Source of the DNA: Acidimicrobiia bacterium
Lineage (GTDB): Bacteria > Actinomycetota > Acidimicrobiia > Acidimicrobiales > CAIXPF01
Length of the DNA: 40,380 nucleotides
Direction: 5' to 3'
Assembly (NCBI GenBank): GCA_031422955.1
Contig: JANPEN010000088.1
Span: forward strand, 1-40,380
The first letter of the stretch is position 1. The number at the start of each line of letters is the position of its first letter. Under the pieces are notes generated by a model. It searched no databases. It was not told the DNA's origin and saw only the letters and a program-made list of their open reading frames with translations. Positions 1,441 through 40,380 of this stretch are shown here, piece by piece. Position numbers and translations under genes: made by a program.

Positions 1441-3291
1441 TTACGCGCAGCGACAAGCGACAGTCTCGTCCATTACCTGCCAGCGGAAGCGCACCGGGGC
1501 CGAGCACTCCCCGCAGCCGGTGCAGCGCATGTGCCACGTGGTGCCCTGCTTGGCGATCTCCAACGGGGCCTGGCCGGTGGACAGCCGCTTGGGCTCGACC
1601 TTGGGGCGGGTGATCTCGGGTAGGTCGATCAGCTCCAGCTCCAGGTAGGGGGCGTCGTCGGGCTCGACCTTGGTCAGGGAACCTTCCAGCTGACGCCACA
1701 CCGAGCGCTGCCACGGAGGGGCGCCACCAGCCTCGGGCGGGTAGGCGAAGCTGGCGTAGGCGTACAGGGTCTCGGCGCCCAGCTCGTGGGCCAAACCGAG
1801 GACGTGATCGTCGAGTTCAGGGCCCTCGACCAGAGCGGACAAGGCGCGCATCGCCGCCCCTGGCCCACCCAGCAACCCAGCCAGACCAGCCACCCCCGCC
1901 AAGCCGATCGTCACGGCCCTGTGGAAGTCCTCGAGGCGTTCCGGCTCCGCCACCACCGCGGGGCCCGGCTCGGCCAAGAAGGCGTCCAGCTCCTCGAAGT
2001 GGGCACCGTCGAAGGTACTGGCCGCCTCGGAAATGCGCTCGATCTCATCCAGAAAGCCGTCCCGCTCGAAGCGGGCATTGGGATCTTCCAGCGTGTCCTT
2101 GGCGAACATGATCACAAAGCGGGCGCCCACCCCTGGACGCTTGCGGCGCAGGATACGGCCCATGCGCTGCACCATCTGGCGGCGGGTCCGACTGGCGCTC
2201 ATGACGATGCCCAGGTTGGCGTCGGGTACATCAATGCCCTCGTCGAGGACCCGGGGGGCGGCCACCGCGTCGAGACGGCGGGTACGCAGATCCTCCAGGA
2301 TGTCGCGGCGGAAGCGTCGGGCTGTGCTCCCGGTGATCAGCTCGATGGCCACCAGCGGATCGAGTCGATTGATGGCGTGGTTGGCGGCCCGCACCGTCTC
2401 GGTGAACAGCAACGCCCCATCGGCCGCTTTGATGGCGGGGGCAAAGCGGCCCAGCAGCTCGTACTTGCCGCTGCTCTGGGCCACGATGAGGCGGCGTTTG
2501 GCGAAGGCGTCGAGGTAGTCCCGGGCGGCCCGACCATCCGCGCCCGTGTCGTGTTCGGCCAGGTGACCCACGGCGGCCAGGAAAGCCCCGAAGGGTTCGA
2601 GAGGCACCCCTCGAACCGAGCGCAGGTGATGGCGAGCGCCCACCAGTTGCTGCTCGGTGGCGATGTACTCGGCCCGTTCCTCAACGGAGAGGGCCACCCC
2701 CACGAAGGCCACCCGGGGTCGGGCGCAGACCCCGTCGGCGATGGCGGCCTCGAAACCGTAGCGGTAGCAGATTCCCCCAAAAAAGGGCAGCAGCAGATCC
2801 GTCACCGCGTCGTCGGAGCGCTCCAGCGTGGCGGTCAGACCCAACCGCTCCTGGTACTGGGTCAGCAAGGCCCGCCGCAGCACCACCCCGCCCAGGCCAT
2901 GGCATTCGTCCACGATGAGCAGCCCGCCGGCCGGCCCGGGGGGGATGGGCTTGTGGGAGGCAGCAGAATGACGGGTGGCCACCAACAGGTCACAGTCCGC
3001 CGGTTGGTCCTTGCCGCTATCGCCCAAACGGCCGATGCGGACGTCGGGCAGGGCCACGGTCAAACGCCCATACCATTGTTCCATCAGCACTCGAGAGGGA
3101 ACCAGCACCAGCACGAAACATCCCCGCCGCAGCGCGTCGGAGGCGGCCGCGATGGCCACATCGGTCTTGCCCGACCCGGTCACGGCCTCGATCACGCCCC
3201 GCCGGCCGCAGGCCAACCAGCTGATGAGGGCGTCGAGCTGCCAGCGATAGAGATCGGGTCGAACCGGCACGGTCGTGGACAGTCCGTTCAT
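1441..3291 (-). CDS. SF2 DEAD/DEAH-box helicase (ResIII / XPB-like core) with a Cys-rich C-terminal extension
   Basis: 616 aa with Walker A AVTGSGKTDV, DECH (motif II), LGLTATLER (motif III) and QRMGRILRR (motif VI). After residue ~430 comes an Ala/Gly-rich linker, then a tail WHMRCTGCGECSAPVRFRWQVMDETVACRCA with five Cys (CxxCxxC...CxC). Confidence 0.85.
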   Translation of the reverse strand: MNGLSTTVPVRPDLYRWQLDALISWLACGRRGVIEAVTGSGKTDVAIAAASDALRRGCFVLVLVPSRVLMEQWYGRLTVALPDVRIGRLGDSGKDQPADCDLLVATRHSAASHKPIPPGPAGGLLIVDECHGLGGVVLRRALLTQYQERLGLTATLERSDDAVTDLLLPFFGGICYRYGFEAAIADGVCARPRVAFVGVALSVEERAEYIATEQQLVGARHHLRSVRGVPLEPFGAFLAAVGHLAEHDTGADGRAARDYLDAFAKRRLIVAQSSGKYELLGRFAPAIKAADGALLFTETVRAANHAINRLDPLVAIELITGSTARRFRRDILEDLRTRRLDAVAAPRVLDEGIDVPDANLGIVMSASRTRRQMVQRMGRILRRKRPGVGARFVIMFAKDTLEDPNARFERDGFLDEIERISEAASTFDGAHFEELDAFLAEPGPAVVAEPERLEDFHRAVTIGLAGVAGLAGLLGGPGAAMRALSALVEGPELDDHVLGLAHELGAETLYAYASFAYPPEAGGAPPWQRSVWRQLEGSLTKVEPDDAPYLELELIDLPEITRPKVEPKRLSTGQAPLEIAKQGTTWHMRCTGCGECSAPVRFRWQVMDETVACRCA

Positions 3292-3415
3292 CGTGGCTTT
3301 CGCGGAGGCATGCGGCCATCAAGGCTACGGCGCCGCTGACCCACTGCGGGCGGTGGCGGAAACAATCGGCCAGGAACCCGACCGCGCCAGCCCCGCCGAG
3401 CGGTAGCATCGCGGT

Positions 3416-4072
3416 GTGGAGTCGGCCAACAACCCAGCCTTCGCCCATTACTGCCAGGCCATCTTCGAGCTCGACGAAGACGAGATCGACGTCATCCAGG
3501 CCCGAATCGCCGAGCGTCTCGAAGTTTCTCGCCCCGCGGTGTCGGAGATGATCCGCCGCTTGGAAACGGCTGGGCTGGTTGAGGTCGATCGCAGCCGCAT
3601 CGCGCTGTCCCACGCCGGCATGCGCCTGGCCGAGCAGGTCGTGCGCCGCCATCGACTGGCAGAACGCTTCCTCACCGACGTGTTGCATGTGTCCTGGGCC
3701 GAAGCCCACACCGAGGCAGAGCGCTGGAGCAGCGTCATCTCCGAGTCGGTCGAAGCGGCCATGATGCAGCTGTTGGGCGAGCCGACCACCTGCCCCCACG
3801 GCAATCCCATCCCCGGTTCGGACTACCGCTCCCCCGGCGCCACCGCCCTGGCCGCGGTGGCCGTCGGCGGCAGCTTCGTGGTCTCCCGCATCCCCGAGGA
3901 GCTCGAGTTCACCCCCGGCCTGCTCGACTTCCTGGAACGCTCCTGGATCGTGCCCGGCCGACGGGGCACCGTCACCGCCCAGTCCCCCGACGGCACCCTC
4001 ACCGTGGAGATCGATGGCCGTTCGGTTGGCTTGGGCGAGTTCGCCAGCAGCCGCATCCTGGTCACCGTCTAG
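3416..4072 (+). CDS. DtxR/IdeR/MntR-family metal-dependent transcriptional repressor with C-terminal SH3-like (FeoA) domain
   Basis: GTG start. ARIAERLEVSRPAVSEMIRRLETAGLV (wHTH), RRHRLAERFLTDVL, AHTEAERW and CPHGNPIPG align residue-for-residue with DtxR/IdeR. A ~70-aa C-terminal domain is present. Confidence 0.9.
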   Translation: MESANNPAFAHYCQAIFELDEDEIDVIQARIAERLEVSRPAVSEMIRRLETAGLVEVDRSRIALSHAGMRLAEQVVRRHRLAERFLTDVLHVSWAEAHTEAERWSSVISESVEAAMMQLLGEPTTCPHGNPIPGSDYRSPGATALAAVAVGGSFVVSRIPEELEFTPGLLDFLERSWIVPGRRGTVTAQSPDGTLTVEIDGRSVGLGEFASSRILVTV

Positions 4073-4988: not shown

Positions 4989-5915
4989 ATGGACCGCCAT
5001 GACGACTTGCCCGAGGCGTTGGCCGAACAGCCCATTCGCTACATCGATCGGACCCGGCGCTGGTATCAGCTACTCGGTTACCAGCCCTACCGCTGGCCCC
5101 AGTTCGACGAGGTGGCCTTCACCGAGTTGACCAAGCCGTTAGCGGCCAGCAAGGTCGCCCTCGTCACCACCGCCGCCCCTTTTCAGCCGGGAGCCGGCGA
5201 CCAGGGGCCCGGCGCGGCCTACAACGGGGCGGCCAAGTTCTTCGAGGTCTACGCCCAGTCCTGTGATGAGCCGGCCGACGTGCGTATCTCCCACATCGGC
5301 TACGACCGAGTTCATAGCACCGCCGCGGATCCCGGCACCTGGTTTCCCCTGCGTCGCTTGCAGGAGGCGGCCCGGGCCGGCCGCATCGGCGGTGTGACGG
5401 CACGGTTTTATGGTGCTCCCACCGTTCGCCGGCAGCGCAGCACCACCGAGGAACACGCCCCCCAGCTGGCGGCGATGCTGCAAGCCGATGGGGCCGATGT
5501 GGCGTTGTTGGTGCCGGTTTGACCGGTGTGTCACCAGACCGTGAGTCTGGTTGCCCGCCATCTGGAAGCGGTCGGGATCCCCACCGTGATCCTGGGGGCG
5601 GCCAAAGACATTGTGGAAACGGTGGGAGTCCCCCGGTTCGTGTTTTCTGACGTCCCTTTGGGAAACTCCGCCGGTCTGCCCTTTGACGAGGTCTCCCAGC
5701 GCACCGCCCTCGAGTCCGCCTTGCGGTTGCTGGAAACCGCCCCCGGTCCCCGCACCACGTGGCAGAGCCCGCTGCGCTGGGGCCCGCCCGGGGACCATGG
5801 CTGGAAGCGAGATTTCAACAATCCGACCGCCCTCAGCACCGAACAACGAGACGAGGCCCGACGGCGTTTCGAGGAACAGAAACAAGCGGCCCGGCCCGGC
5901 CCCGTCACTGGCTGA
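4989..5915 (+). CDS. GrdB/PrdB-like (glycine/sarcosine/betaine/D-proline reductase B family) selenoprotein; TGA 5520-5522 read as selenocysteine
   Basis: ORFs 4989..5522 and 5526..5915 share one frame and are separated only by TGA. Read-through gives ...ADVALLVPV-U-PVCHQTVSLVARHLEAVGIPTVILG..., a UxxC pair at the position where family members carry [C/U]PxC. A hairpin follows the UGA. Confidence 0.8.
5533..5551 (+). promoter_or_regulatory. candidate bacterial SECIS hairpin for UGA 5520
   Basis: ACCAGAC-CGUGA-GUCUGGU forms a 7-bp perfect stem with a 5-nt loop containing GU, starting 10 nt after the UGA. G5530-C5554 and U5531-G5553 could extend it across a C/U mismatch. Confidence 0.55.
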
Positions 5916-12760: not shown

Positions 12761-14893
12761 TCAGCCGGCCCGGAAAGTTGACCCGGCTGCGGCCAGCCCG
12801 GCCAGGCGGGGAGAGATATTCCAGTGCTCGCCCCCGAGACGCTGGTGATAGGCGTTGATCTTTTCCGCCACCTGGTCCAATCCCACGGTGTCGGACCAGA
12901 ACATGGGCCCACCGGTGTAGAGCGGCCAGCCGTAGCCGTTGATCCACACCACATCGATATCACTAGCCCGAATGGCAATGCCCTCATCGAGGATCTTGGC
13001 TCCCTCGTTGACCATGGGCAACAGGCAGCGCTCCAACACCTCCTCGTCGCTCACCGGGCGGGGGGTGATGCCCCGCCGAACCCCCAACGCAGCGATGAGG
13101 GCCTCGACCTCGGGATCGGGGGTGGCGGCCCGGGTAGCGGGTTCATAGGTGTAGTAACCCCGCCCATTCTTCTGGCCCCGCCGGCCCGATTCGCACAAAA
13201 CCTCGCGCACGGTCGATCCAGTGGAGCCTTCTGCCTTCCAGCCGATGTCGAGCCCGGCCAGGTCGCTCATGGCGTAAGGGCCCATGGGGAAACCGAAGTC
13301 GTAGATGACCCGGTCGATCTGGGACGGGGTGGCACCCTCCAGCAGCATGCGGTCCGCCTCGATGCGGCGCATGGCCAACATCCGGTTGCCGACGAAGCCA
13401 TGGCACACCCCGACCAACACCGCAATCTTGTTGATGCGCTTGGCCAGAGCCATGGTGGTGGCGATGACCTCCTTGGAGCTTTTGTCCCCCCGCACCACCT
13501 CGAGCAGCTTCATGACGTTGGCCGGGGAGAAGAAATGCATCCCGACCACGCCTTCGGGCCGGGTCGTGGCCGCGGCGATGGCGTTGACATCCAGCGCCGA
13601 GGTGTTGGTGGCCAACAACGCCCCCGGCTTGCAGATCCGGTCCAGCTCGGTGAAAACCTGGCGTTTAAGCTCCAGATCTTCGAACACCGCCTCGATGACG
13701 ATGTCGAGATCGGCGAAATCTCCTTGATCCACCGAGCCGGTGATAAGGGCCATCCGGGTGCCGACGTCGTCGGAGGTGATCGAGCCCCTGGCCGCGGAGC
13801 GCTCGTAGTTGCTGCGAATAACGCCCAGACCCCGCTCCAGCGAAGCCCGGTCTCGTTCCACGATGGTGACGGGAATGCCGACGTTGGCGAAGTTCATGGC
13901 GATGCCCCCTCCCATGGTCCCCGCCCCCAACACCCCGGCCGAGGCGATAGGCAGTTGCGCGGTGTCCTTGGCCACGTCGGGGACCTTGGCCGCTTCCCGC
14001 TCGGCGAAGAAGTAGTACTGCTGAGCCTTGGCTTGAGAACCGGCCATCAGCTCGCCGAACAGCTCGCGCTCGCGGGCCACTCCCTGATCGAAGGGCAAGG
14101 TGGCGGCGGCCTCGATGCAACGGATGTTGTACTCAGGGGCCAGGAACCCTCGGCTGCGATGGGCGATCTTCTGGCGGAACTGGGTGAAAATCCCCGGATC
14201 GTGGTCGAGCTTGTCGTTGCGGTCCCGAATGGCCCGCAGCGGCCTGGCCTCGGCCAGCACCTGACGGGCGAAGGCGATGGCGCCGGCCTCGAGGGTGGCG
14301 GCCTCGAGGGTGGCGTGGTCCCTTCCCGTCTGCCCGGTAGGGTCGGTCACGATCTGGTCGATGAGCCCGCAGGCCAACGCCTCCTCGGCGCCGATGGGCT
14401 CGCCCGAGGTCATCATCTCCAGTGCTTTGGCGATACCGGTGACCCGGGGCAAGCGCTGGGTGCCACCCGCGCCGGGCAATAGGCCCAGCTTCACCTCGGG
14501 CAGCCCGAAACGGGCAGTGGGCACCGCCACCCGGAAATGGGCGCACATGGCCACCTCCAACCCGCCGCCCAGGGCGGTGCCGTGAATGGCGGCGATGACC
14601 GGTTTGGGGCAGTTCTCCATGGCCGCCTGGGCCCCTTGCAGGGACGGCGGCTGGGGCGGCTTGGCGAACTCGGTGATGTCGGCGCCGGCGATAAAGGTTC
14701 GCCCGGCGCAGAGCAACACGATGGCGGCCACTGCGGGGTCCGCCACCGCCGCGCTCACCCCATCGAGGATGCCTTGGCGTACATGAAAGCTGAGGGCGTT
14801 GACCGGCGGGTTGTCCACCGTGATCACCGCCACCGTGGGCTGGCCATCGGCGTCGTGCAGGTCGAGCCGAACAGATTGGGTCAGTGCATTCAT
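12761..14893 (-). CDS. bifunctional enoyl-CoA hydratase / 3-hydroxyacyl-CoA dehydrogenase (FadB/FadJ-type)
   Basis: 710 aa. The N-terminal crotonase domain has DNPPVNALS and [12 protein letters not shown]. The central Rossmann fold has [17 protein letters not shown]-terminal 3HCDH domains follow. Confidence 0.9.
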
Positions 14894-15843
14894 CGTGCTC
14901 CCTTGGCAGTTGCAGCCGCGGTTCCGGCGCGCGGCGCGCGCTCCCCCGCGTTACCGGGCTCAGCGACTGGCTCAAAGCCGGTGACGTACTGCTGCTCGTA
15001 GCGGTCCCAGGCCGGGTAGTCGATCAGCTCGTAGAGCTCCGCCCGGGTGGCCATACGCTCCAGTATGGCCTGCTGGCTACCGGTGCGGGCCAGTTCGGCG
15101 GCGCCCTCGCGCACGGCATGCAACATCAGCCTAAAGGCCATCATGGGAAAAATTACGGTGGCGAAACCGAATGCTTCGAACTGCTCGGCGCTGAAGTATG
15201 GAGTCTTCCCGAACTCGGTCATGTTAGCCAGCAGTGCCACGGCGGGCAGGGCCTGAGCGAACGCGCGAAACTCGCCTTCACTGCGCAACGCCTCGGCGAA
15301 GATCATATCGGCGCCGGCCTCGACGTAGGCGCCGGCCCGATCGATGGCACCGGCCAGGCCTTCAGTGGCGGCTGCGTCGACCCTGGCAATGATGACAAAG
15401 CTTTCGTCGCGGCGGGCGTCGAGGGCGGCGTGCAACTTGCCAACCATCTCCGCCACCGGCACGGTCCGCTTGCCGTCAAGGTGGCCGCACCGCTTGGGGC
15501 TTTCCTGGTCCTCTAGATGAATCCCAGCCACCCCGGCCCGTTCGAAGGCCCGCACGGTGCGCACCACGTTGACGGCGTTACCGAAACCGGTATCGGCGTC
15601 GCAGAACACCGGCACATCAACCACGTCGACCATACGGCCAGCGTTTTGCACGAACTCGTCGAGGGTGCCCAAAGCGATGTCGGGCAGACCCAAATGGGCG
15701 TTGACGGTGCCGGCACCGGTCATGTAGATCGCCCCGAACCCAGCGGCGGCCATAACCCTGGCGGTGATGGCGTCATAGGCACCGGGAGCGACGAGTATGG
15801 CGGGATCCGCGATGAGTTGGCGCAGCCGCCGGCCGGGGCTCAC
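14890..15843 (-). CDS. isocitrate lyase / PEP mutase superfamily protein (methylisocitrate lyase / carboxyPEP mutase / dimethylmalate lyase-like)
   Basis: APGAYDAITARV, GIHLEDQESPKRCGHLDGK and GADMIFAEAL. The GTG start at 15843 makes a GTGA overlap with the upstream stop, and the stop makes an ATGA overlap with the FadB-like start. The ORF-track start at 15921 lies inside the upstream gene. Confidence 0.85.
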   Translation of the reverse strand: MSPGRRLRQLIADPAILVAPGAYDAITARVMAAAGFGAIYMTGAGTVNAHLGLPDIALGTLDEFVQNAGRMVDVVDVPVFCDADTGFGNAVNVVRTVRAFERAGVAGIHLEDQESPKRCGHLDGKRTVPVAEMVGKLHAALDARRDESFVIIARVDAAATEGLAGAIDRAGAYVEAGADMIFAEALRSEGEFRAFAQALPAVALLANMTEFGKTPYFSAEQFEAFGFATVIFPMMAFRLMLHAVREGAAELARTGSQQAILERMATRAELYELIDYPAWDRYEQQYVTGFEPVAEPGNAGERAPRAGTAAATAKGAR

Positions 15844-16895
15844 AGGTGCGCCGTTCCGGTGAGCAGGCGACGGGCGGTGCGGACCACCCCAGCGGAGCGG
15901 ACCTGGTCGCCCTCGATGCACACGGTGGCCTGCACCGATCCCTTGGGGTGCCAGATCCGGACCACCTCACCGGCGGGCGAGACGGCCCCGGTGGCGGGCC
16001 GGGCGAGCGCGTGGACCAGGGTGCCCGGGAGGCGAGCGGCGGCGGCGATGCACAGCGCCCCGGTCATCGGCACCGCGTGGTGGACCCGGCCCATGGAGGT
16101 GGCCAGGACCCGCAGGTCCTCACCCGGGCTGACCAACACCAGCCGGGGAATGGCCAGGCTGTCCACCCCGATGCGACGCCCGGCGGCGACCCGCAGCGCC
16201 TCGAGCGCGGCCAGAAGTTCGGGGCGGGCGTTGAGCTCGGCCGGGCTCTCGGTGCCCGCCAGCCCGAAGGCGCTGGCCGCGGCGAACACGTAGGGGCTAG
16301 CCACATCAACGATGGACACGTCGTGGCCGTCGAGACCCTCGCGTCGGGCCCCGGTGGGAAACAGCGCGCCGGTAACCGAACCGGCCGGCTCCAGATAATC
16401 CGTGACCAGCGCGGCGCCCGAACCAGGCACCCCGTCGATAACGGTGTCGCCCTCCCAGGCGGCTCGACCGTCGCGCACCACCACCGTGGCCCGCACCACC
16501 ACCGCGGTGTTGAGGTTGCGCAGCCGTACCACCGTCTGGGGCGGGCACGGCGCAACCAGCCCCTCGTCCACCGCGTAGTGAGCCACCGCGGCGGTGAGGT
16601 TGCCGCAGTTGCCGGTGTAGTCGACCACCGCCTGGTCGACGGCGACCTGGGCGAACAGGTAATCCACATCGGCGCCCGGCTCCGCCGAGGGACCCACCGC
16701 CATTACCTTGGAGGTGGAGCTGTGGGTGCCGCCCAGACCGTCGAGCTGCATGGGGTCAGGGCTGCCCATCAGCCGCAGCAGCAGCCGATCGCGCCGGGCC
16801 GGGTCAACGGGCAGATCCGCCATGCGGATGAACACCCCTTTGGAGGTGCCCCCGCGCATCAGCACCACCGGTAGATCGCACGGCAGGTCAGTCAT
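15840..16895 (-). CDS. PrpF / 3-methylitaconate isomerase / 4-oxalomesaconate tautomerase family protein
   Basis: MTDLPCDLPVVLMRGGTSKGVFI... and GNCGNLTAAVAHYAV are hallmark PrpF-family segments. ATG 16895 overlaps the upstream stop by 8 nt (ATGACTGA). Confidence 0.85.
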   Translation of the reverse strand: MTDLPCDLPVVLMRGGTSKGVFIRMADLPVDPARRDRLLLRLMGSPDPMQLDGLGGTHSSTSKVMAVGPSAEPGADVDYLFAQVAVDQAVVDYTGNCGNLTAAVAHYAVDEGLVAPCPPQTVVRLRNLNTAVVVRATVVVRDGRAAWEGDTVIDGVPGSGAALVTDYLEPAGSVTGALFPTGARREGLDGHDVSIVDVASPYVFAAASAFGLAGTESPAELNARPELLAALEALRVAAGRRIGVDSLAIPRLVLVSPGEDLRVLATSMGRVHHAVPMTGALCIAAAARLPGTLVHALARPATGAVSPAGEVVRIWHPKGSVQATVCIEGDQVRSAGVVRTARRLLTGTAHL

Positions 16896-18402
16896 GGGCG
16901 GCGACCAGGGCGGTGGCGGTTTGGGCCGCACCCCGCCCGGCGATGCGTCCGAAGGTGGCCCCCCGCATCAGGCCAGACCCGGCCGCGTAGTTGTGGAAGA
17001 AGAATCCTCCGGCGATCTCACCGGTAGCGAACAAGCCCTCCATGGGCTCACCCACGTTATCGATGACCTGAGCGTGGCGATCGATCCGTAAACCGCCGTA
17101 GGTGAAGGTGATCCCGCAGGTGACGGCGTAGGCCACGAAGGGAGCGCTATCCAAGGTGATGGCCCAGTTCGACTTGGCCGGCTGACCGGGGGCGTCGGCC
17201 CGCACCCCGTCCTTCGCGAAAGCGTCGAACCCGGACCCGTCGTCACAGGCGGCGTTGAACTCCGCCACGGTAGTGGCCAACCCGTCGGCAGAGATGCCCA
17301 GCTTGGCGGCCAGATCTTCCAGCGTGTCCGCCTCCACCGGGATGCCGGTGGCGTAGCGGGGCTCCAGCAGATGGATCGTCTTTTGATCAAAGATCTGCCA
17401 TCCTCGGGCGCCGTTCTGGGCCCGGATGGCCCAACCGGTCTTGGCGTATGTCAGCCACACCTCGTCCTCACCCTCATCGACAAAACGGCGACCGTCGCGG
17501 TCCACCAGAAGGCAATAGGGGTAGGAGTAGCGGCTCATCCGGTCGGTCAGGGACAGCTCGCCCACGTCGGGGGCGTGGGCGTCGAGGGGTGAGGCGTGGG
17601 CGCCGCCCCAGTGCCCCGCCGGCGCCGCCCCCGCGGCCAGGGCCTGCATGAGCATTGTCCCCTGGTTGAAACGGGTACCGCGCACCTTGACCAGGTCCCA
17701 CCCGGCGCCCAGGTAGCGCAGCCGCAGCTCGGGGTTGGACTCGAAACCGCCACAGGCCAACACCACCGCACCGGCCCGCAGATCCTCAAAAGCGTCGCGA
17801 CCCCGGACTCGCACCCCCACGCAGCGCGACCCTTCCATGAGCAGCTCCTGCACCGGGCAGTCGTAACGCAGCTCGATACCGGCCGTCTCGGCCGCGTTGA
17901 ACAGGTCGTACATCAGCCCGATGCCCTCGTTGGTGGCCCGCACGGCGCCGCCCGGGGGAACCGCGTAGCGCTCCCCGGCCGGCAACTGGGCCGGGTCGAA
18001 CAGCTTGTCCACGACCAGCTCCCAACGCACCCCGTAGCCCTGCATCCAGGCCATGGTTTCGTAGGAGGTGTCGATCAGGGTGCTGATGAGCTCGGGGTCG
18101 GAGCGGCCCTGGCAGACCAGGTCGATGTCTCCAGAGAAGCGGGCCGGCTCATAGGGGGCCACCGTGACCCGGTCCACCCAGCGGGCGCCCTCCTCGCTGA
18201 GCAGGGGCTGGAGATGGTCCAGACCACCATGAGCGAAACGGAAGATCCCGCCGGAAAAGCGGCTGTTGCCACCCCGGAGTTCCTTGGGCGCTGCTTCGAG
18301 CACGGTCACCCGGGCGCCGAGCTCCCGAGCTTGCAGGGCGGCAGTCAACGCCGCATTGCCTGCTCCCACCACGATCACGTCGGCCACCGGTGCGCTGTCC
18401 AT
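16888..18402 (-). CDS. FAD-binding dehydrogenase, tricarballylate dehydrogenase TcuA-like (fumarate-reductase flavoprotein fold)
   Basis: 504 aa with VIVVGAGNAALTAALQARELGARVTVLEAAPKELRGGNS, ACGGFESN, RGTRFNQG, DEGEDE, ITFTYGGL and TFGRIAG. As far as I recall the TcuA sequence, these match that family. Confidence 0.8.
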   Translation of the reverse strand: MDSAPVADVIVVGAGNAALTAALQARELGARVTVLEAAPKELRGGNSRFSGGIFRFAHGGLDHLQPLLSEEGARWVDRVTVAPYEPARFSGDIDLVCQGRSDPELISTLIDTSYETMAWMQGYGVRWELVVDKLFDPAQLPAGERYAVPPGGAVRATNEGIGLMYDLFNAAETAGIELRYDCPVQELLMEGSRCVGVRVRGRDAFEDLRAGAVVLACGGFESNPELRLRYLGAGWDLVKVRGTRFNQGTMLMQALAAGAAPAGHWGGAHASPLDAHAPDVGELSLTDRMSRYSYPYCLLVDRDGRRFVDEGEDEVWLTYAKTGWAIRAQNGARGWQIFDQKTIHLLEPRYATGIPVEADTLEDLAAKLGISADGLATTVAEFNAACDDGSGFDAFAKDGVRADAPGQPAKSNWAITLDSAPFVAYAVTCGITFTYGGLRIDRHAQVIDNVGEPMEGLFATGEIAGGFFFHNYAAGSGLMRGATFGRIAGRGAAQTATALVAAHD

Positions 18403-18580
18403 GCCGGCACGCTATTCGATCCCTCGCCGTGGCGGGCGGCCTGGCCCTCGGCCCCGCCGATTAGGGTCGGCGACCATGCTTTTTGGACCGGTTGCCGGAC
18501 CCGGTCGGCCCTCGCCCGGTGGGTGGTCGCACGGTGGGTGGTTGGGCGGCCTGGTACATAGGAGTTTCTCCGGTGACGAA

Positions 18581-19660
18581 ATGGCGGGGTTTGCATCGAC
18601 GGCGGGCGACGGAACCCCGGCTAACCGAGACGCCGTCATGATCAGCAGGGATCCCGGCGGCGGCGGGTCGGAGCGCCTGCGCCTGCGGGTGGAGATCGAA
18701 CGGGTACATCGACTGCGCTTCGACGATGGGTCCCCGGTCCGGGCGGCGTCGGGCCTGGCTCGTCTGGGTGAGGGCTGGCTGGTGGTGCAAGACGACGCCA
18801 ACCACGCGGCCTGGTGCCACCGGGGCGGGGTCCAGCGGCTGCGGATCTTTCCGACCCTCGACGGCCTCGACCACTTCGGTGAGGCCGACGCCACCAAGCA
18901 CCTCAAGGCCGACCTCGAGGCCGCCTGCGAGCTGCAGGTCGCCGGTGAGCCGGCGGTGTTGGTGTTCGGTTCCGGCTCCAGCCCGCTGCGCGCGCGGGTG
19001 GCGCTGGTTCGCCCGGGCGATGGCGATCCAGCCGTGTTGGTGGCCGAACTCGACGGGCTCTATGCCGCCTTGGCCGACGCCCTGGGGGTCGGCCTGGAGG
19101 AAATCAACGTCGAGGGGGCCTGTTGGCGGGGCCAGCACATCCGGCTGTTCAACCGGGGCAACCGGCGTCGAGGGGCGGCCTCTGCCAGTGCCGATGTCGC
19201 CGTGGCCGACCTCCTGGCCGCCTTCGATGCGGCAGCCAACGCAGGCGGTGCCGCTCGGCCGATGCCCGCACCCGATCGGACCTACCCCGCGGTGGTGGCG
19301 TGGCCACTGGCCGTGGACAACGTCCGCCGTTATGACCTGGGAACCATCGAGGGTGTGGGGCTGTCGGTGACCGACGCCCTGTGGTTGCCCGACGGGCGCA
19401 TCGTGGTGAGTGCCGCCGCCGAGGACTCCGGCAACAACATCGACGACGGCCCCGTCACCGGCGCTGCTCTGGCGCTGTTCGATGGTGCGCAACGCTTGGC
19501 CGTGGCCACGCTGCCGACCGTGTCCGGCCGGGTAGCCAAGCTCGAGGGCATTGCCCTGCTGGAAACACTGGTCGACGGCTTCCGCTTGCTCGGCGTGGTC
19601 GACGACGACGATCCAACCCAAGCATCGCTGCAACTGGTGCTGCGGCTACGTCTGGACTGA
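18581..19660 (+). CDS. conserved hypothetical protein, probably a beta-rich repeat fold
   Basis: High GC3 and protein-like composition on the + strand, whereas the antisense ORF looks like a shadow. Start uncertain: ATG 18581 is chosen, ATG 18476 is possible, and the ORF-track start at 18266 lies inside the divergent TcuA-like gene. No motif I can name with confidence. Confidence 0.55.
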   Translation: MAGFASTAGDGTPANRDAVMISRDPGGGGSERLRLRVEIERVHRLRFDDGSPVRAASGLARLGEGWLVVQDDANHAAWCHRGGVQRLRIFPTLDGLDHFGEADATKHLKADLEAACELQVAGEPAVLVFGSGSSPLRARVALVRPGDGDPAVLVAELDGLYAALADALGVGLEEINVEGACWRGQHIRLFNRGNRRRGAASASADVAVADLLAAFDAAANAGGAARPMPAPDRTYPAVVAWPLAVDNVRRYDLGTIEGVGLSVTDALWLPDGRIVVSAAAEDSGNNIDDGPVTGAALALFDGAQRLAVATLPTVSGRVAKLEGIALLETLVDGFRLLGVVDDDDPTQASLQLVLRLRLD

Positions 19661-19733: not shown

Positions 19734-20937
19734 TCATTGGACCGGGTAACGCAGGGGCAACATGCGGGGGCCGCGGACCTGGCCGCCGGCGAAGGTCACC
19801 TCGCCTTGGGGATCGAGGACGAAGTCGGGCAAGGCGGCTAGCCATTCCTCGACGGCGACCTTCATCTCCATGCGAGCCAGGTTGGAGCCAGCACAGCGGT
19901 GCACGCCCACTCCGAAGGCCACGTGGCGGTTGTGGGCGCGCTCGATGATGACCTCATCGGCCCGTTCGAACTGGGCCGGGTCGCGGTTGGCGGCGGGGAA
20001 GGGCAACAACACCCGGTCTCCGGCGTGGATGGTGCGCCCGCCGATCTCGGTGTCCACCGTGGCGATGCGAGCCATGGTCACTGGTCCATAGGCCCGCAGG
20101 AACTCCTCCACCGCCGACTCGATGAGCTCGGGCTGGGCCACCAGGCGGGCCCGGTCTTCAGGGTGGGTGGCCAGATGCAACAGGGCGGATCCAATGGAGG
20201 ACCAGGTGGTGTCGATCCCGGCCACCAGCAACAAGGTGATGGTGCCGACCACATGACCGTCGCGCAGCGGGGCGCCGTCCACCTCTTGGTCCAAAAGAAA
20301 CGAGGTGATGTCGTCCTGACGCTGTTGCTTGCGGCTCTCCAACAGACCGTAGAAATAGGTGAGCATCTCCTTGCGGGCTGAGAGGCGGCGCTCCGGGTCG
20401 ATGGGGCCGTTCTCCAACACGGCCCTGACCCATTCGACGAACATCTCAGTGTCCTCGTAGGGCACCCCGATGACCTCAGCGATGATGCGGGGCGGGATCT
20501 GCTGGGCGTACTCGACGGCGGCGTCGGCGTGGGAGCGGCCGGAGGCGGTGATGGCGGCCATCAACTGCTGGCAGAGTTCACGGGTGAAAACCTCGTAGCG
20601 GTCCACGGCCCGGGGCGAGAAGTAGGGCAGGATCAGCCGGCGATGCCAGGTGTGGTCGGGCGGGTCCGAAGTGGGGCGAGGCGGGCTGGCGTTCCAGACC
20701 TTCGAAGGGCAACACCCCCACCTCACGAGACGAAAAGCGTTGCGTGTCGTACGCAATGGTGACGATGTCCTCATACCGGGTGGGCAGCCAGGCGCCCCCC
20801 CATCGCTCGGTGCGGGCCAGGGGGCTGGTCTGACGCAACTCGGCGTACACGGCCGACGGATCGGCCGTGAAGGACGGGTCGAGCACGTCGAAATCGTTGG
20901 CCCAGTCGGCTACCGCAGGTCGTTCGGAAACGGTCAT
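19734..20937 (-). pseudogene. cytochrome P450, frameshifted (or carrying a sequencing error)
   Basis: The N-terminal ~80 aa (MTVSERPAVADWANDFDVLDPSF...YDTQRFSSREVGV) lie in the frame of ORF 20578..21453. The remainder (PPDHTWHRRLILPYFSP ... FGVGVHRCAGSNLARME) lies in ORF 19734..20774. The span is 1204 nt, which is not a multiple of 3. An AAGGA RBS precedes ATG 20937. This is a paralogue of the intact P450 at 34471..35730. Confidence 0.75.
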
Positions 20938-21092
20938 CGGACAATCCTTTTCTGGCCGGACAACACCCCGGTTGGCGAGACAGCTCCCGCCATTCTCGCA
21001 CAGCAGACCGTCATTCCCACCCCTTGGCAACACCAGCCAGTTAACGGGGCAGGCGTGGTCCGCGGCCGCAATAGCGTCCGCCGCAACGGAGC

Positions 21093-21113
21093 CCCGCGAG
21101 CGAAGATCGCGGG
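21093..21113 (-). terminator. hairpin downstream of trmL (weak terminator candidate)
   Basis: CCCGCGA-gcgaaga-TCGCGGG forms a 7-bp stem 24 nt after the trmL stop. There is no U-tract. Confidence 0.3.
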
Positions 21114-21136
21114 CCCTGTTCCTGGCCGAGTCTCGC

Positions 21137-21703
21137 TCACCCGTCCGGCTCGCCGTCGAAGGCGGTCGAGGCCAACGATTCCGCCAGCGAGTTCGGTGGC
21201 CTGGCCGGGGACCCGACACCGTCGCCATCACGGGCGCCGGCGCCGGCGAAGCCGAGCTGACGCCAACCTTCGTAGAGCACAACGGCCACCGCATTGGCCA
21301 GGTTGAGACTGCGATTGGCGGGCCGCATGGGAATGGCCAGGCGGCGATCGGGCGCGAAGCCGGCCAGCACATGCTCGGCCAGGCCGCCGCGCTCTGCCCC
21401 GAACACGACCACATCGTCGGCCTGGTAACAGACTTCGTCGTAGCGCCGCTCACCGCGGGACGACAGGGCGAAGCAACGCCCCATCGTGTTGCTCAGCGCA
21501 GCCAGGCAGGTACCCAGATCGGCATGGACCCGGACCTTGGCCAGCTCGTGGTAGTCGAGGCCGGCCCGGCGCAGGTTGCGCTCCGCCAGGTCGAACCCGA
21601 GTGGCTCGACCAGGTGCAACCCGGCGCCGGTGTTGGCGCACAATCGGATGATGTTGCCGGTATTGGCCGCGATCTCCGGCGCATTCAACACAACCTGCAG
21701 CAC
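21137..21703 (-). CDS. trmL: tRNA (cytidine/uridine-2'-O)-methyltransferase TrmL (SpoU/TrmH family)
   Basis: (M)LQVVLNAPEIAANTGNIIRLCANTGAGLHLVEPLGF...LRRAGLDYH...RSLNLANAVAVVLYEGWRQLGF parallels E. coli TrmL from its first residue. GTG 21703 is chosen as start. GTG 21712 or 21841 are possible but would add non-homologous sequence. Confidence 0.8.
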   Translation of the reverse strand: MLQVVLNAPEIAANTGNIIRLCANTGAGLHLVEPLGFDLAERNLRRAGLDYHELAKVRVHADLGTCLAALSNTMGRCFALSSRGERRYDEVCYQADDVVVFGAERGGLAEHVLAGFAPDRRLAIPMRPANRSLNLANAVAVVLYEGWRQLGFAGAGARDGDGVGSPARPPNSLAESLASTAFDGEPDG

Positions 21704-21968
21704 GTCCGGCACGCTACACAGCCGTGTAAGGCCGCCGAGGGGCCCACCTCGACCGGGGCCGACACGTCGTCCCGCCCCAACATACCCACAAGTGTGGAAA
21801 TGAAAGCATCCGAGCCGCCCGCGGCCTCGACTTTGGGACACAGAAAGATATGAAAGTTATTAATATGCCGCTAACCCGGGCTGATTTCTGCAGCCGACCC
21901 CCGGCAAAGACCCGAAAGCTCGACACTGGGCGACCGTGCCACCACTCCATGTCGACGCTTTCTCGACG

Positions 21969-38206: not shown

Positions 38207-38319
38207 AACTACCCCCGGTTTGAACGATACGGCGACGGCCCAACGGTGCAACGCGCCGCTGCCCACAGCCCGGACCCTACCGCCGAAGCCAGCCCGGACG
38301 CGCCAACTAGCCTCTGGTC

Positions 38320-38799
38320 ATGACCGACTTCTACGAGCTGAAGCTGACCTCGATCACCGGTGAAGCGGTCGACTTCGCCCAGTACCGGGGCAAGTTCTGC
38401 CTCATCGTCAACGTGGCCAGCAAATGAGGCCTCACCCCCCAGTACGCAGGTCTGCGTGCGCTCCAAGACACCCTCGGTGACCGCGGCCTCGTGGTCATGG
38501 GCTTTCCCTGTAACCAGTTCGGCGCCCAGGAACCGGGCACCGATGAGGAGATCCTGGCCTTCGCCACCACCAACTACGGCGTCACCTTCCCCCTGTTCTC
38601 CAAGATCGAGGTGAACGGCGAAGGCGCCTGTGCGCTGTTCCAGTGGCTCACCGCGGCGTTGCCCAAGGCCGATGGCGATCCGAGCGTGGCCTGGAACTTC
38701 ACCAAGTTTCTCGTGAGTCGAGACGGCACCCCGTTGCAGCGCTTCGAGCCCAAGACCACCCCGGAGGAGGTCGGCCAAGTGCTCGACGCGCTGCTCTAG
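38320..38799 (+). CDS. glutathione peroxidase (GPx/BtuE family) with selenocysteine at TGA 38425-38427
   Basis: ATG 38320 opens [47 protein letters not shown]...[16 protein letters not shown]...WNFTKFLV. The TGA aligns with the catalytic Cys of E. coli BtuE ([15 protein letters not shown]). The ORF track shows only the C-terminal 102 aa. Confidence 0.85.
38442..38459 (+). promoter_or_regulatory. candidate bacterial SECIS hairpin for UGA 38425
   Basis: GUACGCA-GGUC-UGCGUGC forms a 7-bp stem (one G-U) with a GGUC tetraloop, starting 14 nt after the UGA. The apex GCAGGUCUGC is identical to the apex of the E. coli fdhF SECIS as I recall it. Confidence 0.6.
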
Positions 38800-38824: not shown

Positions 38825-39172
38825 TCAGGTGAGCGCCTGCGCCCCGAGGTCGGGGTTGTCGGTGAAGAAGCCGTCCATGCCCGCCAGTTCCGTCGACAAT
38901 TGGATTATTCATGTTGTGTCTATTTGGTGGTCAACTCCGCCTTTCAGATCAACGCCGGATGCGTCATCCACGGCGGAAATGTCCTTCGATCCCGCGGCCT
39001 GACGGCTCCATCCAAGCGCTCCGACGTTGCGCGCCGTAGATGGGTGAGCAACGTCGAAGATGGACACTTCCGGTCCGTTGCGGGGTAGAAGTGGAGCCAT
39101 TAATTGCACGTTCAGATGCAAACCGCGGGCGACCCCCCGGGCAAGGCCCGAGGGGTCACTCAGAATCCGCAC
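38825..39172 (-). pseudogene. possible glycerophosphodiester phosphodiesterase (GDPD)-like C-terminal remnant
   Basis: The minus strand ends ...IIQLSTELAGMDGFFTDNPDLGAQALT*, a GDPD-type C-terminus (G-x-DG-x-FTD-x-PD). It is joined in frame through TGA 38909-38911 to ORF 38909..39172, with an in-frame TAG directly upstream of 39172. The GDPD N-terminal catalytic half is absent, and there is a locally AT-rich patch at about 38895-38935. Confidence 0.3.
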
Positions 39173-39249: not shown

Positions 39250-40380
39250 TCGGCATCGTCACCGCCCGCGATGGTGATCTCGATGGTCCGATCGTTGCCA
39301 CTGGTGGGGTGCTGGATGTTGACCCAGGCGCGGCGCTTGTTGAACGGATCGAAGTACAGACCGGTGAACTCCGAGCCCGGCGTGCCGTTGGAAGCCCAGC
39401 GGCCCAGGCCTTCGCCCTCGTCGGCCAGGTCGCCGTCGCCGTTGACGTCCTTGGCGAACCAGATGTCGTCATCGACGCCACCGTTGCGGTCCTCAATGAT
39501 GTAGATATTACCGTCGTGGTCGATGGCCAGGTTGTCCGGGCTGGCCAGCGCGGCGCCTACCGCAACACCGGTGGCGAGGTCCTTGGTAAAGCGGTCCGCC
39601 CAGCGCGAGATGGAGCCGGCACCGAGGTCGAGGCGGAACACGTCATTCGTGGTAGTCGCGGCGAAGTAAAGGTACTCGCCGCCCTTGCTGGTTTTGAGTT
39701 GCATATCCTCGGGGCGCTGGTAGTCCGTGCCCTTGAAGGCGGCCAGGTTGGTGGTGTTACGGCCGTCTACGGACTTCACGCCGTTGGGGTCCGTGATGGT
39801 GAGGGCACCGGGCAGGGCCTTGCCGTCAGCGTCAGTGAAGGGCACCCAGCTGTAGGCACCCACCGCGTTAGGGGTGTTGCCGTCGCCCACCCGCAGCACG
39901 GAGGTCTGGCCCGCCGCGAAGTAGTCGGCGCGACCGTTCTTGACCTTGCTCATATCGGCCTTGGAGGTGTACTTGTAGATGCTCCCTCCGTTCAGCTCGT
40001 CGATGACGTACATGTTGCCGGCCTTGTCGAACTGCACGCCTTCATGCGAGGTGCGCGGGATGACGTTCTGATGCACGAAGTCGGCGCCGGCGTTGCTTGC
40101 TGCGATGACCGGATTGGTGATGGCGGGTGCGGTGGTCGGGTTCTTGAACTCGAAGAAGCGACCATAAGGATTGGTCGTGCAGCCGGCGGGGGCCTCACAC
40201 CAGCTCTCCTCGGCGGTCACCAGCGTGCCCCACGGGGTCCAGTAGGACGCATCGAAGGCCACGTGACCAAGGAAAGTGGGACTTTGCCAGATGGTGTCGG
40301 TCGTGCCGGTCTCCAGATCGTGGCGTTGCACCCCGGACTGGCCAGTCTCGAACACCGTGAACAGGAAACGGCCCTTGTCC
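39246..40380 (-). CDS. DUF839 / PhoX-like beta-propeller protein (putative phosphatase), 5'-truncated by the window end
   Basis: The frame stays open to the window edge (…DKGRFLFTVFETGQSG…). SHEGVQFDKAGNMYVIDE, PDNLAIDHDGNIYIIED and AWVNIQHP are PhoX/DUF839-type propeller motifs. Confidence 0.75.
   Translation of the reverse strand, partial: DKGRFLFTVFETGQSGVQRHDLETGTTDTIWQSPTFLGHVAFDASYWTPWGTLVTAEESWCEAPAGCTTNPYGRFFEFKNPTTAPAITNPVIAASNAGADFVHQNVIPRTSHEGVQFDKAGNMYVIDELNGGSIYKYTSKADMSKVKNGRADYFAAGQTSVLRVGDGNTPNAVGAYSWVPFTDADGKALPGALTITDPNGVKSVDGRNTTNLAAFKGTDYQRPEDMQLKTSKGGEYLYFAATTTNDVFRLDLGAGSISRWADRFTKDLATGVAVGAALASPDNLAIDHDGNIYIIEDRNGGVDDDIWFAKDVNGDGDLADEGEGLGRWASNGTPGSEFTGLYFDPFNKRRAWVNIQHPTSGNDRTIEITIAGGDDAE

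Follow-up and report, generated by a model that had tools for sequence, protein, structure and literature searches.

The stretch of DNA examined here, referred to as the window, comprises the 40,380 nt of contig JANPEN010000088.1 from an Acidimicrobiia bacterium (assembly GCA_031422955.1). It carries a gene of the glutathione peroxidase (GPx) family whose reading frame is interrupted by a single in-frame TGA, followed closely by a short hairpin that resembles a bacterial selenocysteine insertion sequence (SECIS), the RNA element through which UGA is read as selenocysteine (Sec). The locus consists of three nested features, all on the forward strand.

38320..38799, forward strand: complete coding sequence, 159 residues, of a predicted Sec-containing GPx (translation, Pfam GSHPx, 3cmi alignment, catalytic tetrad)
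38425..38427, forward strand: UGA codon predicted to be read as Sec, peroxidatic residue 36 (aligns with Cys codons; TGA kept in relatives)
38442..38459, forward strand: putative SECIS hairpin GUACGCA-GGUC-UGCGUGC (minimum-energy fold, pair counts in Sec and Cys forms, frozen codons)

A single frame of 159 codons extends from ATG 38320 to TAG 38799, and its sole internal stop is the TGA at 38425-38427. With Cys placed at the TGA codon, the Pfam profile GSHPx (PF00255) spans the interruption unbroken, matching residues 4-110 with an E value of 6.2e-43 and a score of 145 bits against a cut-off of 27, and covering profile positions 1-107 of 108. The best match among solved structures is yeast Hyr1/Gpx3 (3cmi, E 9e-42), which is collinear with the translation across 159 residues. 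The catalytic tetrad is intact, consisting of U36, Q66, W125, and N126 in columns conserved in 191-197 of 197 aligned homologues, while the redox motif U-x-x-T is present as U-G-L-T. The open reading frame (ORF) of 102 residues that begins at GTG 38491 is real, but it constitutes only the C-terminal portion of the GPx gene.

The codon in question was followed among relatives in a collection that represents each species by a single genome. TGC or TGT occupies the aligned position in 76 of the 80 closest loci, so the original prediction was right that Cys forms dominate. TGA was found among these 80 in L002, in L005, and in the second gene of L011, each followed by near the same 18 nt; the three encoded proteins are only ~55-60% identical to that of the window, yet the 18 nt of the hairpin are almost unchanged. 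A protein search found no full-length near-identical protein and returned instead two 100-residue fragments, P0002 and P0008, with 98% and 94% identity. These fragments map to seven metagenome contigs (L081-L087), independent assemblies whose genes are 94-98% identical to that of the window, and all seven carry the TGA together with an identical hairpin. In every one of these contigs, gene callers split the gene into products of 35 aa and 100 aa. The longest, L081, also shares with the window the neighbouring genes, which encode an Ldh_2-family dehydrogenase and PhoX.

Across the Sec forms, every synonymous alternative appears at the four codons that follow the TGA, yet the encoded Gly-Leu-Thr-Pro is preserved, which indicates that translation runs through the TGA. 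A general reassignment of TGA was also considered and was rejected, since TGA is the stop codon of 22 of the 31 predicted genes in the window.

The hairpin pairs 38442-38448 with 38453-38459 in a stem of 7 bp, one of which is a U-G pair, and closes on the loop GGUC at 38449-38452. Its 18 nt lie 14 nt downstream of the UGA, and the loop starts 21 nt after that codon. The structure is present in the minimum-energy fold and has the characteristics set out for bacterial SECIS elements (PMC1088965), namely a hairpin just after the UGA with a small apical loop containing G. Folded alone, the 22-nt hairpin reaches -9.9 kcal/mol with a mildly unusual z of -2.4, and one copy of the 10-mer GCAGGTCTGC is present in the window, where 0.19 would be expected. 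Within this single sequence the evidence beyond chance is weak, and thermodynamics was not used as evidence apart from that modest z value. The significance of the hairpin comes from comparison, because every occurrence recovered lies downstream of a TGA and none belongs to a Cys form.

This association was established by a scan of 185,579 species genomes with the pattern TGNGGNNNNACNCCNCARTAYGCAGGTCTGCG, in which the hairpin sequence is preceded by TGN and the first codon is thereby left free. At least 119 loci were recovered, and the codon is TGA in 119 of 119, with none reading TGC, TGT, or TGG. The proteins encoded at these loci are 44-69% identical to that of the window, the closest listed being that of L164, an Actinomycetota metagenome-assembled genome (MAG). 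Among the 80 loci listed with their taxa, 54 belong to Actinomycetota (almost all Acidimicrobiia), 22 to Gammaproteobacteria or other Pseudomonadota, and 4 to Myxococcota/'Deltaproteobacteria'; the carriers listed include the cultured Ilumatobacter nonamiensis and Salinilacustrithrix flava.

Because this pattern fixed the hairpin core, a second scan was conducted with the hairpin unconstrained and only N-[VL]-A-x-x-TGA-G-x-T-P fixed. It returned at least 119 stretches, and the 119 listed comprise 77 new loci and ~42 consensus loci found again. At nine of the new loci, a Sec-GPx gene is accompanied by a variant hairpin. L223, L260, and L280 carry GUACACA-GGUC-UGUGURC, a compensatory change from G-C to A-U that costs the protein an Ala to Thr and an Arg to Cys substitution. 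The hairpin of L256 has two wobble substitutions, and in L254 and L283 a stem of 6 bp closes on a loop of 6 nt. The remaining three, L218, L233, and L271, have unlike sequences at the same place, which form short hairpins in L218 (CCUGC-AGUU-GCAGG) and L271 (CUCC-GGUCU-GGAG); no clear hairpin was found at the position after the UGA in L233. L218 is a Pirellulaceae MAG and L233 a Planctomycetota MAG. A more distant GPx-like frame was also encountered in L278, reading NVAEA-TGA-GYTPQM ... FYSNDFGNQ, with an in-frame TGA (~6916) at the active-site position.

The contrast between Sec and Cys forms was drawn from all GPx genes of the fetched loci, a pool of 129 Sec and 73 Cys forms, all unique, in which most of the Sec forms had been retrieved by the pattern that fixed the hairpin core. 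All seven pairs form in 122 of the 129 Sec forms and in none of the 73 Cys forms, which reach at most 5 of 7 and most often 1-3. The loop GGTC is present in 126 of 129 Sec forms as against 5 of 73 Cys forms. At the hairpin codons, the Sec forms use GCA (122 of 129), GGT (126), CTG (126), and CGT (121), whereas the Cys forms use all synonymous codons; the usual peptide is QYAGLR in the former and QYEGLE in the latter. This synonymous freezing is confined to the hairpin, the G-L-T-P codons just after the TGA being free, and the fixed GCA, GGT, and CGT end in A or T despite a window of ~66% G+C whose third positions are mostly G or C.

Explicit pair counts on 33 representative sequences gave 92.6% paired cells, with far lower values in controls slid by plus or minus 1 and 3 columns, and one pair was found changed on both sides, in four sequences. 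RNAalifold, applied to a deliberately mixed alignment, returned only the three inner pairs along with a trivial UGAGG/CCNCA pairing that the coding sequence imposes, and the explicit counts were used in its place. The covariation is real but limited, and the contrast between Sec and Cys forms is the strongest argument. These comparisons show that selection at the hairpin codons acts on the RNA and not on the protein. The protein sequence even seems to have given way to the needs of the RNA, since the Sec forms have Ala and Arg at two positions where Glu is usual in the Cys forms.

The in-frame TGA thus almost certainly encodes Sec, and the gene very probably specifies a 159-residue enzyme of the glutathione peroxidase family with Sec at peroxidatic position 36, its UGA being directed by the downstream hairpin. 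Recoding has been shown at the level of sequence by the frame, the family assignment, the conservation of the UGA, the occurrence of the hairpin with UGA exclusively, and the RNA-level selection at the hairpin codons. The coordinates given in the original prediction were all found correct when the sequence was rechecked. Its reading of the peroxidatic codon of a GPx as Sec is upheld by the PF00255 match, the TGA of relatives, the 119 of 119 loci, and the contrast with Cys forms; its proposal that the downstream hairpin acts as a SECIS gains support from the comparative data on TGA and hairpin, and the folding by which it suggested checking this element recovered the hairpin in the minimum-energy structure.

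By the standard bacterial mechanism, a ribosome positioned at UGA 38425-38427 would encounter the 18-nt hairpin, 14 nt downstream, at its mRNA entrance. As in established bacterial Sec insertion, SelB carrying Sec-tRNA(Sec) would bind the apex of the hairpin, with its GGUC loop and G-C rich closing pairs. SelB would then deliver Sec in competition with release factor 2, and translation would go on to TAG 38799.

A second TGA-interrupted gene in the window, also accompanied by a hairpin, bears on whether this organism decodes Sec.

4989..5915, forward strand: PrdB/GrdB-like predicted selenoprotein gene with a U-P-V-C motif, UGA at 5520-5522 (Pfam GRDB; homologues keep the TGA)
5533..5551, forward strand: SECIS-like hairpin ACCAGAC-CGUGA-GUCUGGU, starting 10 nt after the UGA (conserved at eight loci)

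The frame 4989-5915 contains a single internal TGA within the motif LLVPV-U-PVCHQT, and its hairpin folds at -9.7 kcal/mol with a z of -2.9. Pfam GRDB matches the C-terminal part of the product only (E 4e-8, 33 bits, cut-off 22), and the scores fall under the curated cut-offs for PrdB (TIGR04483, 95 bits against 300) and for TIGR01918 (48.9 against 65.45), so the predicted product is a distant PrdB/GrdB-like protein and not a member of the characterised glycine/betaine/sarcosine/D-proline reductase B family. Eight homologues from Acidimicrobiia MAGs, with 65-78% identity, all keep both the TGA and the hairpin, and in one of them (L285) the hairpin shows a compensatory change from C-G to U-A. 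This gene supports the decoding of Sec by the organism, as the original prediction had argued from a GrdB-like second TGA gene, and its homologues point to Acidimicrobiia as the most probable class of the host. The search for further TGA-split ORF pairs that it also suggested was carried out within the window for frames with high G+C content at third codon positions (GC3), and it returned the GPx gene and a spurious antisense frame at 40069 only; it missed the PrdB-like gene, which lies under the GC3 threshold and was spotted by eye. The main contact of SelB, in both E. coli and Moorella, is the G-U of the loop, and both hairpins of the window (GGUC and CGUGA) carry G-U at loop positions 2-3 as read from the sequence.

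Several results weigh against Sec insertion at the GPx gene. The 40-kb window contains no tRNA gene and no selA, selB, selC, or selD; Aragorn detected no tRNA-Sec in any fetched locus, and simple motif searches for SelA and SelD in the fetched loci and the window found nothing. Rfam matched no family, either across the whole window at gathering thresholds or in 38300-38560 at E up to 10, a null result that was to be anticipated and says little, as Rfam covers such elements of bacteria poorly. Relative to shuffled sequences, the 56-nt region does not stand out in stability (z -0.09), and covariation is confined to one pair, as the hairpin is almost invariant. Sec insertion in this clade is, moreover, a prediction from nucleotide and protein sequence. 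With respect to the machinery, selA, selB, selC, and selD would be located elsewhere in the genome; in another lineage of Acidimicrobiia, Actinomarina, Sec machinery has been reported for each of the 84 complete genomes (bioRxiv 10.64898/2026.04.03.716425).

The alternative that survives best, although very unlikely, is a readthrough without Sec, in which a near-cognate Trp or Cys, for example, is inserted at the UGA and the hairpin merely stimulates readthrough or pauses the ribosome. Such an explanation would accord with the Sec machinery going unobserved in the window and the fetched loci, and some readthrough of UGA by Trp or Cys does occur in bacteria under selenium limitation. The codon, however, specifies a redox-active site that is active only with Cys or Sec, the apex of the hairpin matches exactly the one that SelB binds in E. 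coli fdhF, the G-U contacted by SelB is present in both loops, and related Acidimicrobiia possess selA, selB, selC, and selD.

It is extremely unlikely that the gene is a pseudogene or the product of a sequencing error, with TGC or TGT changed to a nonsense TGA in an ordinary Cys-GPx. Most relatives indeed have TGC or TGT at this codon, and automatic callers break the gene in two, but the same TGA recurs in seven independent assemblies and in all 119 hairpin genomes, which a chance lesion would not explain. Both halves of the gene are under purifying selection at the protein level with synonymous change free, the full catalytic tetrad is retained, and the hairpin is absent from Cys forms, while the relatives show neither frameshifts nor a loss of constraint downstream of the TGA.

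A split gene is just as improbable. Here translation would stop at the TGA to yield a 35-residue peptide, and a separate protein of 100-102 residues would start at GTG 38491 or ATG 38497, in keeping with the existence of the ORF at 38491-38799 and with the 100-aa protein held in databases (P0002, P0008). The codons that precede the proposed restart (37-57) nevertheless encode conserved GPx sequence with synonymous variation, and the C-terminal fragment would be left without the peroxidatic residue. Neither a ribosome-binding site nor a conserved start was seen at 38491, where no search aimed at them was made.

Finally, the chance is next to negligible that the hairpin is conserved only through a conserved peptide, Q-Y-A-G-L-R, and codon bias rather than as an RNA element: QYxGL is conserved in Cys forms too, but the Cys forms that encode it use all synonymous codons and pair at 0-5 of 7 positions, whereas in the Sec forms the rare codons GCA, GGT, and CGT are fixed and Ala and Arg stand at two positions that are usually Glu in Cys forms, the variants with A-U in place of G-C differ at two residues at once, and no Cys-form gene occurs among the 119 matches of the hairpin scan.

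With the UGA taken as a Sec codon directed by the hairpin, the enzyme can be placed among the known types of GPx by its resolving cysteine. In the 3cmi alignment, the resolving Cys of yeast (Cys82, ~46 residues after the peroxidatic residue) corresponds to Ala82 of the window protein. This column is Cys in 97% of Cys forms and in 2% of Sec forms. When 124 Sec forms and 73 Cys forms are placed on a neighbour-joining tree, 121 of the 124 Sec forms gather in one clade of 123 sequences, and the whole tree needs only five changes between Sec and Cys. The resolving Cys is absent from all 121 Sec forms of this main clade and from the two Cys forms inside it as well. The three Sec forms outside the clade retain the resolving Cys and have hairpins or sequences of their own after the UGA; these three (L218, L233, and L271) appear to be independent, recent conversions from Cys to Sec.

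The simplest reading of this distance tree would be that one old conversion from Cys to Sec preceded the disappearance of the resolving Cys, that the gene passed between phyla, and that a small number of reversions and of recent, independent conversions also took place. Whether the main clade amounts to a self-contained 'selenoperoxidase cassette', with a single origin, horizontal transfer among Acidimicrobiia, Gammaproteobacteria, and Myxococcota, a near-invariant 18-nt SECIS, and a lost resolving Cys, is a proposal that we hold to be evenly balanced. The apex and frame shared with fdhF may make such a SECIS readable by the SelB of distant phyla.

As the clade has lost the resolving Cys, the usual intramolecular disulfide is unlikely, and the selenenic acid would probably be reduced by an external thiol or by another Cys of the protein. 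Cys27 and Cys104 could serve as alternative resolving partners; they are enriched in Sec forms, at 58% and 44% compared with 3% and 5% in Cys forms. An Ilumatobacteraceae MAG (JBEBGL010000007.1, represented by L011 and L089) carries a Cys-GPx and a Sec-GPx in tandem, at ~3001-3444 and ~3460-3930 of L011. The Cys copy groups inside the Sec clade, is without the resolving Cys, and has a decayed hairpin, CAGTACACGGGTCTGGTTGCG; it looks like a duplicate that has reverted from Sec to Cys.

The remaining content of the window accords with an actinobacterium and includes P450s, luciferase-like monooxygenases, and a DUF2510/RDD protein. On the reverse strand, 14890-18411 holds a same-strand run of a phosphoenolpyruvate (PEP)-mutase/isocitrate-lyase family gene, PrpF, and an FAD-binding_2 flavoprotein, adjoined at 12761-14950 by a FadB-like enoyl-CoA hydratase/3-hydroxyacyl-CoA dehydrogenase; together these may form a cluster for organic-acid catabolism. 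A protein encoded at 18233-19660 on the forward strand matches both DUF6910 and DUF6929 at ~E 1e-60, and a coding-like open frame without a Pfam match can be read on either strand, at 20834-21853 (forward) or 21137-21856 (reverse). The GPx gene and PhoX are convergent, and the space between them contains a short A+T-rich stretch, attggattattcatgttgtgtctatttggtgg (38880-38945), in a window of otherwise 66% G+C.

Bacterial Sec-GPx enzymes have been predicted since about 2004 and are rare but catalogued. Published cases are Treponema denticola and five Sargasso Sea sequences, in which the UxxT motif occurs together with a bacterial SECIS (PMC1088965, PMC1794560), and a 2026 review places them among the families 'predicted with high confidence' (PMC13188914). 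The gene of the window extends this catalogued family and overturns nothing in current understanding. A limited literature search found no paper on a near-invariant SECIS or on loss of the resolving Cys in bacterial Sec-GPx. The systematic mis-calling of such genes as 35 aa and 100 aa means that both the use of selenium and the capacity for antioxidant defence are under-counted in Acidimicrobiia, a class abundant in freshwater, marine, and soil samples. The clade also offers a natural experiment on what a SECIS needs, with one 18-nt sequence exclusive to UGA in more than 100 genomes of three phyla, one compensatory pair, and a few independent replacements.

Compared with the Sec-GPx of T. denticola (WP_010957027.1) and the Sargasso Sea, the window protein has the same PF00255 domain, the same U-x-x-T motif, an in-frame UGA, and a small hairpin with G in its loop. 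Judged by the published descriptions, it is set apart by its probable Acidimicrobiia host and by its membership of a large clade with a near-invariant SECIS and without the resolving Cys.

The hairpin itself can be compared with the SECIS of E. coli fdhF, which reads TGA CAC GGC CCA TCG GTT GCA GGT CTG CAC (L295). The apex GCAGGUCUGC is identical (38446-38455 in the window), with the loop GGUC on three closing pairs, GCA/UGC, and it stands in the same reading frame, Ala-Gly-Leu; both elements lie inside the coding sequence just after the UGA. The loop starts 21 nt after the UGA in the window and 18 nt after it in fdhF, a difference of 3 nt. The stem in the window is a perfect 7 bp, whereas that of fdhF, GGUUGCAGGUCUGCACC, folds with one unpaired, bulged U, and the window hairpin is without the long lower helix that reaches back to the UGA. 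The description of the hairpin as fdhF-like in the original prediction therefore holds for the apex, which is identical on the real E. coli sequence, and does not extend to the bulged U, which is missing, or to the spacing, which differs.

Relative to yeast Gpx3/Hyr1/Orp1 (3cmi) and the Cys-GPx enzymes of BtuE type, the window protein is of the same monomer size and shares the catalytic tetrad and the FPCNQF motif. It differs from these 2-Cys, thioredoxin-dependent enzymes in having Sec in place of Cys and Ala82 in place of the resolving Cys. Since the bacterial Sec-GPx has dropped that residue, its reductant is predicted to be unlike that of the common Cys-GPx.

The animal Sec enzyme GPx4, which matches at E ~3e-33 to 1e-30, is likewise a monomer-sized Sec enzyme without the resolving Cys. 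According to a 2021 study, bacterial GPx enzymes have both cysteines, and the gain of Sec was proposed to have made the resolving Cys dispensable in animals (PMC8614756). The gain of Sec and the loss of the resolving Cys follow the same pattern here, and the main clade would be a bacterial parallel to that animal path. The animal enzyme, by contrast, uses a eukaryotic SECIS in the 3' untranslated region and another insertion machinery. The window protein is less similar in sequence to animal GPx4 than to the yeast and bacterial enzymes, and the features that it shares with GPx4 are for this reason most likely convergent.

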